Shown here piece after piece: positions 3,071 to 58,884 of a stretch of 64,000 nucleotides of DNA. The translations under genes and the position numbers were made by a program. The number at the start of each line of letters is the position of its first letter. Positions within the stretch are counted from its first letter, which is position 1. The notes under the pieces are model-generated. The model was not told the origin of the DNA. It worked only from the letters and a program-made list of their open reading frames with translations, and searched no databases. Source of the DNA: a virus. The DNA is taken from positions 7,050 through 71,049 of the IMG/VR virus record IMGVR_UViG_3300012923_000008. One strand, given 5' to 3'.

Positions 3071-3303
3071 TGGAGGGTAAGGTTGTTGATTTTATACCCG
3101 AGAAAATCGATAGGTGGAAGTATAAACAGATCTATGATCTTCTCCCCGGGAAGTCTATTCTATATGAATGGGATTTGTTCAAGAACGTTCCTGATCCTTG
3201 GAGTAATATGAGAACGGTCGCTTGGGTCTATGGTAGGAAATTAAATTGGAAACTAAGAGCCTTCAAGCGCAAAGAGGGTATTTATATTTCTCGGATCGAG
3301 TAG
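3070..3303 (+). CDS. Small basic hypothetical protein (DUF7303-like, putative DNA-binding)
   Basis: TGATG-coupled to the TMP gene. The C-terminus YGRKLNWKLRAFKRKEGIYISRIE resembles that of 53361..53666. Confidence 0.55.
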   Translation: MEGKVVDFIPEKIDRWKYKQIYDLLPGKSILYEWDLFKNVPDPWSNMRTVAWVYGRKLNWKLRAFKRKEGIYISRIE

Positions 3304-3316
3304 GTGATGTTTAATC

Positions 3317-5327: not shown

Positions 5328-5746
5328 TAGATCCGAGTATTGCTAAGGGCTCGATCGAAGCAATTGCGGCGATTATTGTCTCGGTTATTAGCTCCGCGGC
5401 GGCATTGGCTTCGGCGTTTTATGCTAATAGACAAAAGACTGACGATGCAAAAGAGGACAATCGTGACCGGGCGAATAATGCAGAAATCTCAGCGCGAGAA
5501 CAACTCTATACTGGCTTGAGCGGGGACCTACGCCGATTGCGAGAGGATTATGATTCACTTAGGACTGACCGCGCCGATCTGTGGAGGAGATTCTTAGAGG
5601 GGCAGGAACATAGTTCTCGGCAGGATAAGGCTTTGGATGATTGTGAAAGGACCAGTGCTACGCTTAAGAGAGAACTATTAGAGACTAGACAGCGATTGGC
5701 CACTTGTGAGAGAAAACTAGGTATAATAAATGGAACCAGTGAATAA
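5312..5746 (+). CDS. N-terminal TM plus coiled-coil protein (lysis accessory or i-spanin-like)
   Basis: One hydrophobic helix followed by a heptad-rich region. The ATG at 5312 is in frame with ORF 5165..5746. Confidence 0.5.
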   Translation: MAAGIVDPSIAKGSIEAIAAIIVSVISSAAALASAFYANRQKTDDAKEDNRDRANNAEISAREQLYTGLSGDLRRLREDYDSLRTDRADLWRRFLEGQEHSSRQDKALDDCERTSATLKRELLETRQRLATCERKLGIINGTSE

Positions 5747-6717
5747 TGCCCCGGCCCTGTACAGCGACGCTTCAGACGTTCCTTGACACATGGAACCCAA
5801 GTACGGGAGCACAGATCGCGGACCTTTATATCTTTACCCTTATCACAGGTGAGGTGTTTTATTATTCGGGGTTTCGGACGGCCTTGGCGGCTCCATTGGC
5901 AAACACTGACTCACCGAAGTTCCTTTTTGAGCGGGGGCCAGTATTTACCCGGACTAAGGTCAAGACACAGATTGGCCCACAGATTGATGAGTTAGAGATA
6001 GCCATGATCGTGGGGGAGAATGACCTCGTTGCGATGGATTCTGGGGGAACGCTTACTTGGCAGAGGGCATTTTGGTCGGGGATCTTCGACGGGGCAGACG
6101 TGGAGCTTCTCCGGGCATTTATTTCTGTCACCCCCGGAATCCCCGCGACTAGAACGGTGGTGGGAACCCTCACTTGGTTCTATGGTCGGATAGGGGACGT
6201 TGAGATTGGCCGGACGAGATGCATGGTCCGGGTGAAGAGTCTTCTCGATCTTCTCACGGTCCAGATGCCCCGGCGGCTTTTTCAGTCAGCGTGTAATCAT
6301 GTATTCGGCTCGCCGATGTGTGGGTTCAATAGAACCACCGGGGTAAGTGCGATAGGAAACACTACCGCATTTGGGGCACAGACTATTACCTGTGGGGCGG
6401 GGAGTGATCAGAATTCACTTAAGACGAGCTATTCGCCGGCAGTGAGTACGGCGTATGATAACGGAACAGTGATCGGTTTGGCGGGGCTAAATGCTGGATT
6501 TACACGAACTATCGGTAAACTTACCGGCGGGACGATTTATTACCTTAAGCCTTGGATTTTCCCAGTCGTTGCTGGGGTAGATACATTTACACTCCTGCCG
6601 GGGTGTAATAAACTATTGAACACGTGCATTAATACTTTTCAGAACCAGGCGGCGAATGGAAGTGCGGGGCGGTATGGTGGATTTCCGTATATTCCCCCGC
6701 CGGAGAGCGCTGTATGA
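5746..6717 (+). CDS. Tail hub protein (DUF2163 / BR0599 family)
   Basis: GIFDGA, PRRLFQSACNH...CG, PGCNKLLNTC and GGFPYIP motifs. Confidence 0.88.
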   Translation: MPRPCTATLQTFLDTWNPSTGAQIADLYIFTLITGEVFYYSGFRTALAAPLANTDSPKFLFERGPVFTRTKVKTQIGPQIDELEIAMIVGENDLVAMDSGGTLTWQRAFWSGIFDGADVELLRAFISVTPGIPATRTVVGTLTWFYGRIGDVEIGRTRCMVRVKSLLDLLTVQMPRRLFQSACNHVFGSPMCGFNRTTGVSAIGNTTAFGAQTITCGAGSDQNSLKTSYSPAVSTAYDNGTVIGLAGLNAGFTRTIGKLTGGTIYYLKPWIFPVVAGVDTFTLLPGCNKLLNTCINTFQNQAANGSAGRYGGFPYIPPPESAV

Positions 6718-7229
6718 TATACTCATCTAAGGGCGAATTCTTTACAGCTGAAAAATGTCGGTATGATGAGGTTAAGTTGAGAGATAAGGTACTGTCCGAA
6801 GCGCAGTCTTGGCTTGGAACTCCGTTCGAACATCTTCAGAGGTGCAAAGGTGCCGGGGTGGATTGTGGACAGTTCCTATTGGGGGTGTATCACAATGCTG
6901 GGTGTATCCCCCACGTCATACCTGACTACTACCCCCGAGACTTCCATTTAAATAGTGACAGGGAGTGGTATCAGGAGATTATTCTGAGATTTGCCCGGGA
7001 GATCCCCGGCCCGCCGAATCCGGGAGATCTAGCACTGTTTAAACTTAATGACGGACTGGTTTACTCTCACGGCGCTATTGTTACTTCTTGGCCGAAAGTG
7101 ATTCACTCTTTCATTCATCGGGGGGTTGTCCCCGCCGATGCGACGCAGGGATACCTTAAGGGCAACCCGGTGAAGTTCTTCGAGCCCTTGGCTTTCTTTT
7201 CTGGCGACGGTGAGAAGTGTCGTCCGTAA
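6714..7229 (+). CDS. NlpC/P60 tail peptidase
   Basis: AQSWLGTPF...GVDCG (catalytic Cys), SHGAI (His) and VIHS. Confidence 0.9.
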   Translation: MIYSSKGEFFTAEKCRYDEVKLRDKVLSEAQSWLGTPFEHLQRCKGAGVDCGQFLLGVYHNAGCIPHVIPDYYPRDFHLNSDREWYQEIILRFAREIPGPPNPGDLALFKLNDGLVYSHGAIVTSWPKVIHSFIHRGVVPADATQGYLKGNPVKFFEPLAFFSGDGEKCRP

Positions 7230-7430
7230 GGGATGGGGATTGTAAGGAGGTGGGCATTTCCCTTCTTCCCCGCCAAATCTTCTCTAACTTGAGCCCAAAG
7301 GACGGCGTAACGGACTGGTCCCCCGTTGTCATAACCGCGGATTCGCGGGGTGTGATAGGCAAGGCAGAGCAAGTCGCGCTATTGTCAAGTCATGCTTGGT
7401 ACCCCGGCACGGTGGCCGGGGCATACCAAA
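7230..7430 (+). ncRNA. Candidate structured RNA, copy A
   Basis: About 200-nt gap between tightly packed tail genes. It shares ordered motifs and a bulged 3' hairpin with 57841..58138. Confidence 0.45.
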
Positions 7431-7443
7431 GAGGGTTTATCTT

Positions 7444-9621
7444 TTGACCGGTCTTTTCCGTACCCGGCAGCCGTTTCTCCAGACTAACGCTTGGCAAAAC
7501 CAGGCTCTTAATGCCTTACACTATAATACCTCTCAGCAGGGCTCGGTCGTTCCCCTTGTTTACGGTACTGTTCGGCAGCAAATTAATCTTCTTGACTTTC
7601 AGGACTACAAAGGTCCTGTGGGGGCAAAGGGTAAGACAGGTTCGTTGCCTATAACGGGTACTCAATCTCGCTCGGCCAAGGGTGGTAGTTCGAAGAGTGG
7701 TAAGAAATCTTCTCCCGATTATAGCCTTGACGTGATGTTCGGACTTTGTCAGGGACCTATTACTGGAATAGGGAATGTCTATACTTCGGCCGGGATCGCG
7801 AATTTTGGCTCTTTGCCACTGAACTTCTACTCCGGTGCTGATGGGCAGGCGGCCGATACAACGTTTGTCAGATTCGGTTCTATCGTGGGGTATTCTGGGA
7901 CGGCTACAGTTTCTGCGACTCCGTTGGATCTTGGTCCGAGTCCGGTTCTGCCGAACATTGCCGTAGAGATCATAGGGCTCGAGGTCGGAATTAATACTGG
8001 TTCTTTTACTTCTGATGCTAACCCGGCGAATGTCATTACAGATTTTCTCACTAACTCCCGCTACGGAGTGGGATTTCCCAGTGGAAATCTCTCTGATCTT
8101 ACAACTCTTACGGGTACTTCATTTGCTGAATACTGCCAAGCCACACCGCTATTAATCTCCACTTCGCTTGATGGACATCAGAAGGCCATCGAGTGGCTCG
8201 ATGCCATTGCTAAACTGTGCAACACGGCGATGTTTTTTGCGGGGAAATTGCTCTATTTTGTTCCTTTCGGTGATCTATCGCTCAATAACAACTCCGCCAC
8301 GTGGACACCGAATCTTGTTCCGGAATATTCGCTTACTGATTACCACTTCATTCCTTGGCGACAGCATGAACTTGGCCGGGAGCCGCAGCCCGGTGAAGAC
8401 GATCCGCTACTCGTAACCCGCACTAACTCGGCCGACGCTAATAATTGGAAAAGTATAGAATACACTGACCGGGACAATTTCTACAATTCAACTACCTTGA
8501 CCGTGGACGATCAGGGACTCATCGACGCGTATGGTTTGCGTATGGGGGACTCTATCCAGGGCCGTGCATTTTGTAGCGTCATTCCTGCCCAGGTCTCAGT
8601 ACAGTTAAATATTCAGCGTGATGCCTATATTCGCAACACCCCGTATAAATTACAAATTGGCTGGCAATTCGCCCGGCTGACGCCGATGGATATTATTACC
8701 CTCACTGGTCGGCATGGCGACCTTTATCTTAACGAACAACCTGTGAGGATTCTTTCTATCGAGGAGGACGATCAGGGGGGACTCACTATCGAGGCCGAAG
8801 AAATACAGCAGGGCGTATCGTTGCCGCCGGTTGTCCCTGGGCCCCCGCCGAACGTTATCGCCTATGGTGCTTCACCGTCGAATTATAGTGCTAACTTTTT
8901 AGTCAGGACCGCGGACCTTACAATAAATTCTCCATATCCAATATCCTCTGGTGCCGCTAAAGAGAATGCGTTTATAATGATGGTGGAGACCAGGGATGAT
9001 ATTTTAGGACCAGTAGCTCCGGTAGTGAGTAGTATTACCAGTATTCCGCCTCTTACTTGGCAGAAGAGGACCGATTTTTCGGGGACCACTCTGCCCGGCC
9101 CGGTCGGGTCTAATATGGAGATTTGGTGGGCTGATTGTAGTAGTCTGGCGTCAGGGACTCTTGTTACTCCTACGGTGCATTTCTCAGGGGTGGCTTATTT
9201 GCCCCAGTTTATCATGCAAGCTGTAGCCAATGTGGGGAACCCGGCTTCGCCGTGGGATACGAATGCTAGTCTACCACATAAGGTCTCTGGAAATTCTGTA
9301 CCACCTCAGATCTCAGGGGTTTCTACGACTAAATCTAATACTGTGACTTTCGTCTGGATGACCTCCCCGCATTTTATGACCAACGTGGGCACTAATGGCG
9401 GGATGACTGTCGGATCACCGCCATTTATCGTCAGTCCATTGTCAACCGTTATCGGGAGTAGCGTTCTTGAAGTTGATACATGGGCCAATTGTTACGTGGT
9501 GTTTAATTCTCCGCAGAGCTCCCTGCTTCTAAAGCCGTTTACGCCGGATGTGAATTCTGTTGTTGGACCTTATCCGACAGTGGGATATCTCATGATCGCT
9601 GACGCTATAGTCGGAGCCTAG
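7444..9621 (+). CDS. Central tail/host-specificity (megatron/J-like) protein, N-terminal half plus an extra C-terminal domain
   Basis: VPLVYG, FGLCQGPI, DANPA..I.DFLTNSRYG and VRILSIEED motifs. TTG start at 7444 after GAGGG. Confidence 0.85.
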   Translation: MTGLFRTRQPFLQTNAWQNQALNALHYNTSQQGSVVPLVYGTVRQQINLLDFQDYKGPVGAKGKTGSLPITGTQSRSAKGGSSKSGKKSSPDYSLDVMFGLCQGPITGIGNVYTSAGIANFGSLPLNFYSGADGQAADTTFVRFGSIVGYSGTATVSATPLDLGPSPVLPNIAVEIIGLEVGINTGSFTSDANPANVITDFLTNSRYGVGFPSGNLSDLTTLTGTSFAEYCQATPLLISTSLDGHQKAIEWLDAIAKLCNTAMFFAGKLLYFVPFGDLSLNNNSATWTPNLVPEYSLTDYHFIPWRQHELGREPQPGEDDPLLVTRTNSADANNWKSIEYTDRDNFYNSTTLTVDDQGLIDAYGLRMGDSIQGRAFCSVIPAQVSVQLNIQRDAYIRNTPYKLQIGWQFARLTPMDIITLTGRHGDLYLNEQPVRILSIEEDDQGGLTIEAEEIQQGVSLPPVVPGPPPNVIAYGASPSNYSANFLVRTADLTINSPYPISSGAAKENAFIMMVETRDDILGPVAPVVSSITSIPPLTWQKRTDFSGTTLPGPVGSNMEIWWADCSSLASGTLVTPTVHFSGVAYLPQFIMQAVANVGNPASPWDTNASLPHKVSGNSVPPQISGVSTTKSNTVTFVWMTSPHFMTNVGTNGGMTVGSPPFIVSPLSTVIGSSVLEVDTWANCYVVFNSPQSSLLLKPFTPDVNSVVGPYPTVGYLMIADAIVGA

Positions 9622-12886: not shown

Positions 12887-12952
12887 AAGGTGAGAGGAAT
12901 GCTGAGTCTTCTCACTCTTTTCTTTAATCTCAGCTCTTTTAGGAGAACACTT

Positions 12953-39630: not shown

Positions 39631-39805
39631 TCTATTCCTTGTCCGATTGCCATCCCCTCCACCGCGGAATATCCCGCGAGGTCTAAGGAATAGACTGGGT
39701 GTTTGGAACGAGACCGCCGCGAATGGGTGCGAGCTCATTCCCGATGCGAAAAGTAGAGCCTAATACTTTGACTAGGCCAGTGTCATTCCGACACTGGTTT
39801 GTTTT
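39631..39805 (+). ncRNA. Structured leader or sRNA ending in a terminator-like hairpin
   Basis: Stems 39631-40/39685-94, 39721-40, 39758-77 and 39777-84/39790-97, followed by a U-tract. Confidence 0.45.
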
Positions 39806-40534: not shown

Positions 40535-40562
40535 CAAGGGGAGAAATCCCCTTGGTCTTTCT
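40535..40562 (+). terminator. Intrinsic terminator
   Basis: CAAGGGGA-GAAA-TCCCCTTG followed by GTCTTTCT. Confidence 0.75.
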
Positions 40563-56171: not shown

Positions 56172-57842
56172 ATGGATGGTCTACCAGTTGCTTTCACCGG
56201 AAACGGTGGTGTCGGAAATGAATTCATCGGGGCACTGCTGAGTAATCCGCAGTTCGTCGAAGGTCTTGCGAAGAAACTTGGCTGGGACCTGAGCAAAGCT
56301 GATACGATCTCGCAGGCGACGAATCTCCTCTGGTACGATCTCGCCCCGATCGTGCAAATGCTGTACCCCTATAGGGAGTTGATCCCCAGGATTTCCCGTC
56401 TCGCTAGGGTCGCCGGTGATGGTGGTAATGCGTACCACTGGAAACGGATAGTGGGCGTGAACGTGAGTGGGATCTCGTCCGGCGTCAGTGAAGGGAATCG
56501 CGGGGCCAGGATTGCCATCGCCGAACAGGATATGATGGCAAAATACAGTGGACTCGGCTTCGAAAGCTCGGTCTCGTTCGAGGCCCGGTACGGCGGCCGG
56601 AACCTCTCTCCGGAAACCCTTGGTCTTGCCACGCAGTCTTCGCTCCGTTCTCTCATGATCGACGAAGAGAAGATCCTAATCAATGGGAACGGCAACTTCC
56701 CCGTCGGAGTCACTCCCACGCCGACAATTGCCAGTACTGCTGTGGTAGGGGTTACCGGTGTCTGGGCTGGGGCGACGGCGTTTGTGATCTGTGTTGCTCT
56801 AACGGGCATGGGCCGACTAGGGTATTCGGCGTATAATTCGACGACCAATCTCGGCGGAGTACCGGGGCAGGTATCGAAGACCAACGCCGACGGGAGTATT
56901 GACACTTATGGCGGCGGTAGTGCCCAGCCGAGTGCTGAGACAAGTCTGGTAATCTCCGGCACCAATTGCGCCGTCTGCACTGTCACCCCGGTCCCGGGAG
57001 CATTCGCCTACGCCTGGTACGCGAGTACCACTACGGGAACGGAGACCCTGATAGGGCTTACCCCGAGCAATCGGGTAGTACTCACAGGAACCCTCCCCAC
57101 TGGTGCTCAGCCCATTGGGAACCTCAAGGTCGGGGCTGGTTTCGTCGATAATTCGGTGAATCAACTGATCCCGGACGGGGTTCTGAATCAGATCTCCGCC
57201 GCGATCACCGGCCCAAGTCCGGGTCAAATCATGGCTACGAACCAGATTCTGCCGAACGTAGTCAACACTGGCGATACGATCTCCGTCGCCCCGAGCGGTG
57301 CACTGATCTACACGATGGCAGCGGGGAACACTGGGCTCACAGTGCAGGGAAGTAATTTCCCTCATATCGACGCCTTTTTGCAGGCGGCCTATGACCAGTA
57401 CAAGATCGGGTTCGATCGGATGCTGATCTCGGCGGCCGATAACACCGACACCTTCGGCGCTATGCTCGGGCAGAGTGCAAGTGCAAGCCCCTATAGGATT
57501 TGGTTCGACGCCGATCAGGCTAGTGGAAGAATCATCGCCGGAAGACGCGTTACGGCGTATCAGAACAAGTCCTTCGGCAACGACATCGACGTGGAGATTC
57601 ATCCTTACGTTCCGCCGGGGACGATCCTGTTCTGGTCGGATAGATCACCCTATGAACTCTCCGGGGTAGCGAATCTCATCGAGGCCAAGGTAAGGCAAGA
57701 CTATTACCAAATTCCCTGGCCCTGGCGGACCCGGCGATACGAATACGGCGTGTACGTGGACGAGACGTTCCCGTGCTACTTCACCCCGGCATTCGGGATG
57801 ATTACGAACAAGAATCCTGTGACAGGGAACTTCGTCTATTAG
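56172..57842 (+). CDS. Major capsid protein
   Basis: Follows the protease gene; YDL.P....LYP, VSEGNRG, EE.I...GN and IHPY.PPGTIL. Confidence 0.85.
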   Translation: MDGLPVAFTGNGGVGNEFIGALLSNPQFVEGLAKKLGWDLSKADTISQATNLLWYDLAPIVQMLYPYRELIPRISRLARVAGDGGNAYHWKRIVGVNVSGISSGVSEGNRGARIAIAEQDMMAKYSGLGFESSVSFEARYGGRNLSPETLGLATQSSLRSLMIDEEKILINGNGNFPVGVTPTPTIASTAVVGVTGVWAGATAFVICVALTGMGRLGYSAYNSTTNLGGVPGQVSKTNADGSIDTYGGGSAQPSAETSLVISGTNCAVCTVTPVPGAFAYAWYASTTTGTETLIGLTPSNRVVLTGTLPTGAQPIGNLKVGAGFVDNSVNQLIPDGVLNQISAAITGPSPGQIMATNQILPNVVNTGDTISVAPSGALIYTMAAGNTGLTVQGSNFPHIDAFLQAAYDQYKIGFDRMLISAADNTDTFGAMLGQSASASPYRIWFDADQASGRIIAGRRVTAYQNKSFGNDIDVEIHPYVPPGTILFWSDRSPYELSGVANLIEAKVRQDYYQIPWPWRTRRYEYGVYVDETFPCYFTPAFGMITNKNPVTGNFVY

Positions 57843-58138
57843 GGTGGTTCTTCGTCGGTGGACGGGTTCCCTCCGGTACGCCCCACTCGCGGATTACGTA
57901 TCTTCCGACAGGGGAATAGAACCTTGACCGTGGCTCCATAGTAGAGGTAGAAGGTGCGGCTGAAAGGTCTACCATTGTGCTATGCGCAGCAAAGACCCAG
58001 AAACGTGGTGAACCCCTACCGTAGCTTTGGCGTAATTCGGCGGGGTCACTGACAATGATGCACAAAGCATGATTCGCGTGCTTAAGTTCGTCTTGGTACC
58101 CCTGTCCTTAGCTGGCAGGGGTGTACCAAAACCACTCT
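57841..58138 (+). ncRNA. Candidate structured RNA, copy B (about 300 nt)
   Basis: The ends pair (AGGGTGGTT/AACCACTCT); internal stems; shares its 3' module with 7230..7430. Confidence 0.5.
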
Positions 58139-58395
58139 TTCAAGGGGATTTGTTTCGTGATTGATCCAGGGAAATTCTGCAAGGTCGTGATCCAACCGGG
58201 AAGTAGTGCAAGTAAGTTCTTCCCGTTTAGTATAAGCGAAAGCGGACTTGCCGCGGAGTTGCGTCGATTTGCCGACGCAATTGAGTCGGGAACTGTTGTT
58301 CCGCAGAAAGTTCAGACTGGTGTAGTGGCACTACCGTCTGAGCATGCGAAGCAAGCCATTATGATCGAATTTGCTGAAGTCAAGGGGAGCTGATC

Positions 58396-58884
58396 TTGGC
58401 CGGTCTCTGTCAGGACTGCGATGCCTGTTGTAGAGTTTTCGAGGTGAAGACAACTTTGCAAGATAAAATCCCCTTGAACAAGCCGTTTGGAATTCCCTGT
58501 CAACATTTGGGTCACACGGTGCTTGGTCACGGTTGTACGATCTACAAAGACCGTCCCGACGCCTGTAATCATTACGTCTGCCTTTGGCTTGAAGCGGCAA
58601 GAAGCGTTTCTCGTAACGCTCCCGAGAATATGCGCCCCGACATCTCTGGCTGTGTACTCGGGTGGCCTTGGGGAGTAGATCGGGAAACCCTTCATGTATA
58701 CCCTATCCCGGGACACCCTAAGTACCCCGACGCTTGGAAATTCCCACCGGTGAGTGACTATCTTCAGGACCTTCTCCGCCGTGGTGGGAAACTTATGATC
58801 TTCGTCGAAGGTAAGCGCATTGCCATTCGCGGGGATATGGCTGTGATCGGAACCGAAGAAGAATTTGAACGACTAACAGGATAG
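58396..58884 (+). CDS. YkgJ-like cysteine-cluster protein
   Basis: CQDCDACC, C.HL, C.IY.DRP.AC and C.WL. Confidence 0.75.
   Translation: MAGLCQDCDACCRVFEVKTTLQDKIPLNKPFGIPCQHLGHTVLGHGCTIYKDRPDACNHYVCLWLEAARSVSRNAPENMRPDISGCVLGWPWGVDRETLHVYPIPGHPKYPDAWKFPPVSDYLQDLLRRGGKLMIFVEGKRIAIRGDMAVIGTEEEFERLTG

Follow-up and report, generated by a model that had tools for sequence, protein, structure and literature searches.

Two copies of a structured non-coding element, termed A and B, lie in the late gene block of an uncultivated soil phage and are read here, tentatively and with somewhat less than even confidence, as cis-acting intercistronic leader elements that operate in gene sense within the late polycistronic mRNA. 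The existence of the elements, their relatedness and their non-coding nature are established, as are their folding on the sense strand, purifying selection on part of them and their position beside ribosome-binding sites; their function we infer in its entirety. Taken together, the evidence is that of what is probably a lineage-specific mRNA leader element, and not yet of a demonstrable new class of RNA.

The window, i.e. the whole stretch of 64,000 nucleotides that was analysed, comprises bases 7050-71049 of a 71,049-base IMG/VR virus record recovered from soil metagenomes. Among cultured phages, its capsid-module protein is closest to those of two Brevundimonas phages (36% identity), and these matches, together with the domain set of the tail tip, point to a probable alphaproteobacterial host. 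The tail-tip module (5746-9621) consists of a phiJL001 Gp84_N + BR0599 tail gene (5746-6717), a minor tail protein gene (6714-7229; PHROG 329 'minor tail protein' only, no Pfam family) and a Phage-tail_3, host-specificity-like gene (7444-9621), the first and last assigned from PHROG and Pfam matches. It is similar to the tail modules of alphaproteobacterial phages and of gene transfer agents.

Copy A is the 214-nt spacer at 7230..7443 (+), with the minor tail (NlpC/P60-like) gene on its left and the Phage-tail_3 gene on its right; its non-coding status follows from the list of open reading frames, the PHROG and Pfam assignments of the flanks and an internal frame without homolog. Copy B is the 314-nt non-coding spacer at 57843..58156 (+), between the 556-aa capsid-module gene (56172-57842, phrog_13692, stop codon 57840-57842) and a 78-aa ORFan gene that starts with GUG at 58157. 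Both therefore sit in non-coding gaps of the late plus-strand block, the other gaps of which are mostly filled by small reading frames with positive codon scores. A covariance-model scan, with the phage's own genome as positive control, found exactly two copies in the 71-kb genome. The 246-nt gap after the tape-measure gene (3071-3316) was considered as a third copy and rejected, being unstructured (z 0.03) and without a model match.

At the junction held by copy A, the only relative found for the tail-tip gene, locus L002, carries an 87-aa reading frame (L002:1946-2209) that is XRE-type HTH-like by sequence, and the junction is accordingly regarded as a variable insertion site. At the other junction, many relatives have a CxxCxxCC cysteine-rich protein gene directly 3' of the capsid-module gene (loci L003-L012); in the window its counterpart lies at 58396-58884 (PF03692-like, below the curated cut-off), with copy B and the 78-aa gene inserted between the two.

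In pattern scans of viral, metagenome and genome collections, the element has one true relative, an ortholog of copy B that is roughly 85% identical to it: L067, a 2,024-base metagenome contig that aligns to window positions 57699-58878 at 84.6% identity and contains the whole copy-B spacer. The same contig settles the status of the neighbouring gene (58157-58393), which has no Pfam or PHROG family and forms three clusters in a collection of 5.8 billion proteins (itself, one at 90% and one at 61% identity). Its differences from L067 number 4, 4 and 28 at the three codon positions, which marks it as a real gene, and the correspondence of its GTG start codon with TTG in L067 fixes the start at 58157. 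With A, B and L067, the known family amounts to three sequences, a size at which an R-scape-type covariation statistic is impossible.

A first-pass annotation of this DNA had listed a series of ordered motifs common to the two spacers, and all of them were found, in order and on the plus strand, within 7304-7430 and 58029-58130: GGCGTAA (7304-7310 in A, 58029-58035 in B), GCGGGGT (7345-7351 and 58040-58046), TCGC (7374-7377 and 58073-58076), AAGT (7387-7390 and 58084-58087), the 11-mer CTTGGTACCCC (7395-7405 and 58092-58102), GGGG (7418-7421 and 58118-58121), a 2-nt bulge (CA at 7422-7423, TG at 58122-58123) and TACCAAA (7424-7430 and 58124-58130). The details fared unevenly in that AAGU and UCGC, present in A and B, are lost in the ortholog, which reads AAUU and UGCC, and in place of the small stem drawn around AAR-GCA..UCGC the ortholog supports an AAGCAUG/CGUGCUU pairing.

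The extent to which this similarity exceeds chance differs along the element. The 11-mer has two exact occurrences in total; by BLAST it is, taken alone, at chance level (E 2.8-4.2), and allowing up to 2 mismatches shows no enrichment, with 12 matches where 16.8 would be expected. In local alignments across the 71-kb genome, A and B are each the other's best match, by a narrow margin (35 versus 29 and 28; 99th percentile 26). The composite pattern of the bulged hairpin P3, with its 20 specified bases, is rare, occurring at nine loci in the metagenome collection, at one in viral contigs and at seven in genome contigs (one genome for each of 185,579 species), and among all these loci L067 alone is related, on inspection, in sharing anything upstream. 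When a covariance model was built from copy B and L067 only, with copy A left out, copy A was the best non-self match in the window (22.6 bits, rough E about 6e-5; next unrelated match 8.7 bits). Unrelated loci chosen for the P3 pattern alone reach 18 bits with the same model, so that P1 and P2 of copy A add only about 4 bits. On these comparisons P3 appears as the part that A and B clearly have in common above chance, and their upstream similarity, in P1 and P2, as weakly supported.

In copy A, P3 spans 7396..7429 (+) and is predicted from sequence and fold to have a lower stem UUGGUA/UACCAA, the CA bulge, an upper stem CCCCGGC/GCCGGGG and a 6-nt loop; in copy B it spans 58093..58129 (+), with the same lower stem and CCCC/GGGG, UG as the bulge, and an upper stem that differs from that of A yet pairs. 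The hairpins are G+C-rich, with 13-14 bp, arms of 13-14 nt and loops of 6-7 nt. The 2-nt 3' bulge previously proposed for both was borne out, and both fold as described, at -22.0 kcal/mol each on the sense strand (z -2.57 for A, -3.56 for B; -19.4 kcal/mol for L067). On the minus strand the L067 hairpin drops to -15.8 kcal/mol (z -0.66); that of copy B is more stable there, at -25.7 kcal/mol, which counts against a sense-RNA reading. The base of P3 and the position of the bulge are identical in A and B, and the base is identical in A, B and L067 despite the diverged apex.

Position is the strongest clue to function. In all three sequences (A, B and L067) a Shine-Dalgarno sequence lies 1-12 nt beyond the end of P3, with a UUG or GUG start 8 nt further on, the distance from hairpin to start codon being 14-27 nt. 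For the tail gene these signals are GAGGG (7431-7435, +) and a likely UUG start at 7444-7446, with homology to L002 beginning five codons after 7444; for the 78-aa gene they are AAGGGGA (58142-58148) and GUG (58157-58159), together 58142..58159 (+). The leader reading is preferred because the hairpin ends so close to the Shine-Dalgarno sequence and because the helices are kept on the sense strand.

The same placement has been considered as that of an attenuator, or partial terminator of transcription, through which the downstream genes would be expressed less. By stability, P3 does rank within the top 25 of the genome's 50-nt hairpin windows, and in many relatives (L041, L009, L023 and L060, for example) the capsid-homolog gene is immediately followed by a hairpin, in many cases with a U run, that precedes the ribosome-binding site of the next gene. 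Of the two features of an intrinsic terminator, however, P3 has the G+C-rich hairpin and lacks the 3' U tract, its tails reading AGAGGGUUUAUC (A), AACCACUCUUUC (B) and CCCUACCCAACA (L067); a terminator scan does not call it, and the phage has canonical hairpin-plus-U terminators at its operon ends (12889-12916 (+), 13312-13286 (-), 39773-39801 (+) and 40535-40554 (+)). Attenuation is accordingly rated as highly improbable. The first two of these terminators form a pair where the late and early blocks converge and served as the phage's own terminator standard.

Upstream of P3, three further helices were recognised in copy B. P0, taken from the minimum-free-energy (MFE) fold of the single sequence, pairs 57843..57849 with 58130..58136 (both +) and would thereby close the whole spacer, starting one base after the capsid-gene stop; in L067 two of its pairs are changed on both sides and kept, and two end pairs are broken. 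P1 (58005..58053, +) contains GGCGUAA and GCGGGGU. P2 (58057..58092, +), with the AAGCAUG/CGUGCUU upper stem, is fast-evolving, with wobble-compatible changes. No reading frame is kept across the spacer: the plus frames contain 4-6 stops, and a 1-nt insertion in L067 shifts an 87-aa minus-strand frame.

Conservation between copy B and L067 is markedly uneven. Identity is 96% in P1 (48/50 alignment columns), 94.5% in the block 57985-58056, 83% in the 5' half of the spacer, 78% in P3, 70% in P2 and 67% in the stretch from P3 to the start codon; at third codon positions it is 64.6% in the 78-aa gene and 75% in the end of the capsid gene. Since the identity of P1 lies far above that of synonymous sites (65-75%), P1 is under purifying selection as non-coding sequence. 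P2 and the stretch after P3 would, by the same yardstick, evolve at about the neutral or synonymous rate. P1 shows two changes in all, each of which maintains its helix or makes it better, and the single insertion there, a U opposite a bulged A, fills the P1 bulge.

This pattern bears on two alternatives. Were the elements a functionless relic, a scrap duplicated by insertion or recombination at two variable junctions, with a hairpin that persists by chance or gene conversion, then their absence from eight related records and 62 capsid-homolog loci, the weak similarity upstream of P3 and the near-synonymous rate of P2 and of the spacer after P3 would all be in keeping. P1 and the block 57985-58056 are, however, far more conserved than synonymous sites, the changes are pair-preserving and strand-specific, and the base of P3 has stayed the same in three sequences whose apices diverged, so that decay without function is considered rather unlikely.

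Somewhat easier to entertain, though still unlikely, is a DNA-level explanation in which P1 is a promoter or another site bound by RNA polymerase or by an activator, transcription begins near P2, and P3 serves as the 5' stabilising hairpin of a separate transcript, an arrangement that we take to resemble moron architecture. P1 is conserved as sequence, whereas P2 evolves neutrally; relatives show both junctions to be hot spots for insertion (the HTH gene of L002 at the position of A, an extra gene after the capsid gene in L010); and copy B is accompanied by a small ORFan gene of its own. Against this, the sole two changes in P1 favour the helix, copy A is without an extra gene of its own, and neither spacer contains a sigma-70-like promoter, which is weak evidence as the promoter type of the host may differ.

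The 3' domain of copy B (58003-58136) was folded alone, from the window sequence, and the L067 substitutions were scored on the predicted pairs: on the plus strand seven changed pairs are kept and two broken, on the minus strand two are kept and seven broken. Folding L067 instead gives 9 kept and 3 broken (+) versus 2 and 6 (-). In coding controls 38% of changed pairs are kept, and only 1/64 control windows does as well as copy B. In P3 the substitutions (U-A to U-G, G-C to G-U, U-G to C-G) pair in the sense strand only. In its single ortholog, the 3' domain of copy B thus appears to behave like a structured RNA of mRNA sense.

Other structure statistics discriminate less. The 5' half of the copy-B spacer gives 2 kept and 16 broken pairs when the window sequence is folded, versus 7 and 3 when that of L067 is folded; the fold of the whole spacer is not unusually stable (z -0.95 for A, -0.86 for B); and the whole-spacer MFE of B, tested in L067, does not separate the strands (11 kept and 17 broken on the plus strand versus 9 and 11 on the minus strand). 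RNAalifold on B and L067 returns 88 pairs, 0 broken and 3 compensated, a result that is not counted because coding controls look the same, with none broken and few compensated. Likewise, the 97.4% pairing of a model-fitted three-row alignment, matched by 0/500 shuffles, is a description only, as the alignment was fitted to the structure. The covariation earlier read from the stems of A and B loses its force for similar reasons, in that it compares two paralogs only and two-sequence RNAalifold is equally clean on coding controls.

Copy A is the less clearly defined of the two. Alignment to the B/L067 model suggests a P1-like hairpin at 7325..7360 (+), weakly supported, which contains UUCGCGGGGU, i.e. 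the GCGGGGU motif at 7345-7351, and a poorly defined P2 region at 7364..7395 (+). A 519-base variant contig from sequencing run X1 matches 7301-7350 with 3 differences and 7452-7500 with 6, and replaces 7351-7451 by 106 unalignable letters, which is 5 nt longer; this parallels copy B in having a conserved P1 side and a fast P2/P3 side. Among contigs over 6200-8400 there was no second full copy of A, run X2 containing identical 151-nt pieces and the contigs of runs X3 and X4 lying outside the element.

In the MFE fold of the whole A spacer, a predicted 9-bp helix (7276-7284 with 7431-7439) encloses P1-P3 and sequesters the tail gene's Shine-Dalgarno sequence; as modelled, it might correspond to P0 in copy B. 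Within 7231-7274, a purine run with AAGGAGG (7244-7250) is followed by a pyrimidine run, UUCCCUUCUUCCCC, and the two runs pair in the same fold. The AAGGAGG is a strong Shine-Dalgarno look-alike without a start codon at workable spacing.

That look-alike also enters into the question of whether copy A is a small protein gene, a 76-aa reading frame at 7217-7447 (or 7250-7447) whose TGA overlaps the UUG start of the tail gene at 7444. The frame is open, its codon score of 0.11-0.14 bits per codon is the best of six frames, at the low end of real genes, and a strong AAGGAGG lies within its region. Yet no usable start codon stands at the right spacing from it, and the frame has no Pfam or PHROG match; the variant contig is 5 nt longer within the frame, a length change that is not a multiple of three and so argues against it; and in copy B the corresponding frame is interrupted by a stop codon in the loop of P3, with B and L067 differing by a 1-nt indel. 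A conserved protein in this frame had been named as the finding that would overturn the RNA interpretation, and none emerged: there is no homolog, and the frame is absent from the collection of 5.8 billion proteins, in which the 78-aa gene is present. A protein-coding origin of copy A is therefore very doubtful.

Searches for known families and for relatives further delimit the element. As previously surmised, it matches no catalogued RNA family: Rfam 15, which covers known ribozymes, riboswitches, phage motifs and alphaproteobacterial sRNAs, gave 0 matches at the gathering threshold on the whole window. Relaxing the cut-off to E of 10 brought up, in the two regions, only MicA (15.9 bits, threshold 41), Xoo8 (7.5, threshold 90) and Lnt (16.7, threshold 55); ARAGORN found 0 tRNA or tmRNA genes in the window. 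Neither region has a BLAST match among 50,697 phage records. In viral contigs, the strict hairpin pattern gave 0 matches, the exact P1-block patterns of B and A gave 0 and 0, and no locus was found for the homolog (P0005) of the 78-aa gene; the relaxed pattern gave one chance locus there, eight chance loci and L067 in metagenomes, and seven chance loci in genome contigs. Across 74 loci, the model found only L067, copy A (as L001) and chance look-alikes of P3. Three of the chance pattern loci (L071:2531-2684, L072:3832-3985 and L073:1205-1247) are on unrelated metagenome contigs with G/C-run palindromic repeats of their own, L071 and L072 being identical over the 230 bases inspected around the match.

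A model search of eight related phage records gave 0 matches, and the element is thus dispensable for phages of this kind. It is equally absent from the 62 capsid-homolog loci, where the two genes either adjoin without a gap or are separated by a simple hairpin, in many cases followed by a U run. A REP/BIME-type host repeat was rejected, as in the 185,579 species genomes, among which the true host may not be represented, the P3 pattern yielded seven loci with one match each, in unrelated taxa and none with the upstream motifs. A sigma-54 promoter, an activator dyad, an integron attC site, a CRISPR-repeat mimic, IS200/IS605-type ends and a K-turn were considered by eye and dropped for misfit of spacing or consensus, or for want of a multi-copy source.

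A more ambitious proposal is that of an autonomous or catalytic RNA of a new class, be it a riboswitch-like switch, a self-cleaving RNA or a small RNA gene. Copy B has four C-run/G-run segments able to pair alternatively (58013-16, 58042-45, 58099-102 and 58118-21), with equivalents in copy A, such that pairing of the first with the second and the third with the fourth could give way to pairing of the second with the third; the closing helix P0 has two compensated pairs, P1 is strongly constrained, and no known family matches. The spacers, however, have no independent promoter or terminator that could be found, no ribozyme model scores at E of 10 or below in the two regions, the switching segments are invariant in L067, and the family counts three sequences only; such a class is improbable. 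The GGGGU/ACCCC switch suggested earlier is possible on paper, although in copy B GGGGU sits in the P1 helix that the ortholog keeps, and no test conducted here points to the ribozyme, antitermination or mobile-RNA options raised alongside it.

A bolder form of the leader reading would make A and B the two founding members of a previously undescribed class of leader RNA in phage late operons, ordered P0-P1-P2-P3. Its constrained P1 core would respond to a factor from the phage or the host, or to the arrival of ribosomes that finish translating the upstream gene, and a switch from CCCC:GGGGU + ACCCC:GGGG to GGGGU:ACCCC would gate the next cistron. This is regarded as quite unlikely, if marginally less so than a free-standing RNA.

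The preferred reading is that of leader elements in the late mRNA. The element would consist of three parts, namely the sequence-constrained core hairpin P1, the fast-evolving spacer hairpin P2 and the stable bulged hairpin P3, the last of which abuts the ribosome-binding site of the next cistron. It would act after transcription, uncoupling the downstream cistron from the upstream one, and so may set the mRNA stability, the processing and/or the translation of the downstream cistron. The two placements, after the capsid module and before the tail-tip protein, would be points at which the needed amounts of protein fall. A factor that reads the invariant base of P3 with its fixed 2-nt bulge, and/or P1, may take part; a scan of the 20 larger reading frames of the early and middle regions recognised no protein of RNA-binding or antitermination type.

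The means by which tailed phages obtain very different amounts of protein from a single long late transcript are understood only in part. Given a host or an expression system, a compact element with a constrained core and a fixed bulged hairpin before two late cistrons would offer a tractable example. For now the element is a minor, lineage-specific feature of one uncultivated soil phage, and its main use lies in the annotation of these spacers as non-coding RNA leaders, rather than as genes or terminators.

Among known systems, intercistronic stabiliser hairpins and REP-type elements are stable stem-loops between the cistrons of one operon, and the T-phi hairpin of T7 reportedly follows capsid gene 10 at a point where protein amounts change. 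The likeness lies in a stable stem-loop between cistrons where protein amounts change, and simple hairpins occupy the junction after the capsid gene in relatives of this phage. The elements described here differ in having no U tract, and hence are not canonical terminators, in not being a multi-copy host repeat in the represented genomes, and in carrying 100-250 nt of extra conserved leader. A literature search on post-capsid hairpins and late-operon mRNA stability returned nothing on point.

The HK022 put RNAs (putL and putR) are cis-acting antiterminator RNAs. They resemble copies A and B in that there are two paralogous copies per phage, with adjacent stem-loops whose stems differ between copies with pairing kept (AF069308), whereas put sites follow early promoters and A and B lie deep in the late operon. 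The put RNAs and the present elements have no sequence in common, and a model of the two HK022 put regions (two sequences, 10 base pairs) recovered its own two; neither the window nor L067 contains a match to it with an E value up to 10.

Also among the closest described elements are the extended start-associated sequences (ESAS) of Cluster K mycobacteriophages, whose 17-bp arms accompany SAS, a 13-bp consensus at the start codon; SAS occurs in 11-19 copies per genome, about half of them with ESAS, in the non-structural half of the genome, and the function of ESAS is given as unknown (PMC3203893). ESAS and the present elements appear alike as phage-specific inverted repeats with a variable spacer, just upstream of gene starts, gene-oriented and conserved in close relatives (PMC3203893). 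The geometry is similar too (arms, loops and distance to the start as given above for P3), without sequence relation. The present elements differ in having two copies, in belonging to a structural operon, in having no SAS consensus, and in their fixed 2-nt bulge and conserved upstream hairpins; a test for SAS found no common 13-mer at the two starts, with two copies only to compare. Repeated hairpins of the ESAS kind beside gene starts have been known since 2011, with a mechanism still lacking. Altogether, A and B represent a new, very small, lineage-specific element that can be likened to ESAS and to post-capsid intercistronic hairpins and is a member of neither.
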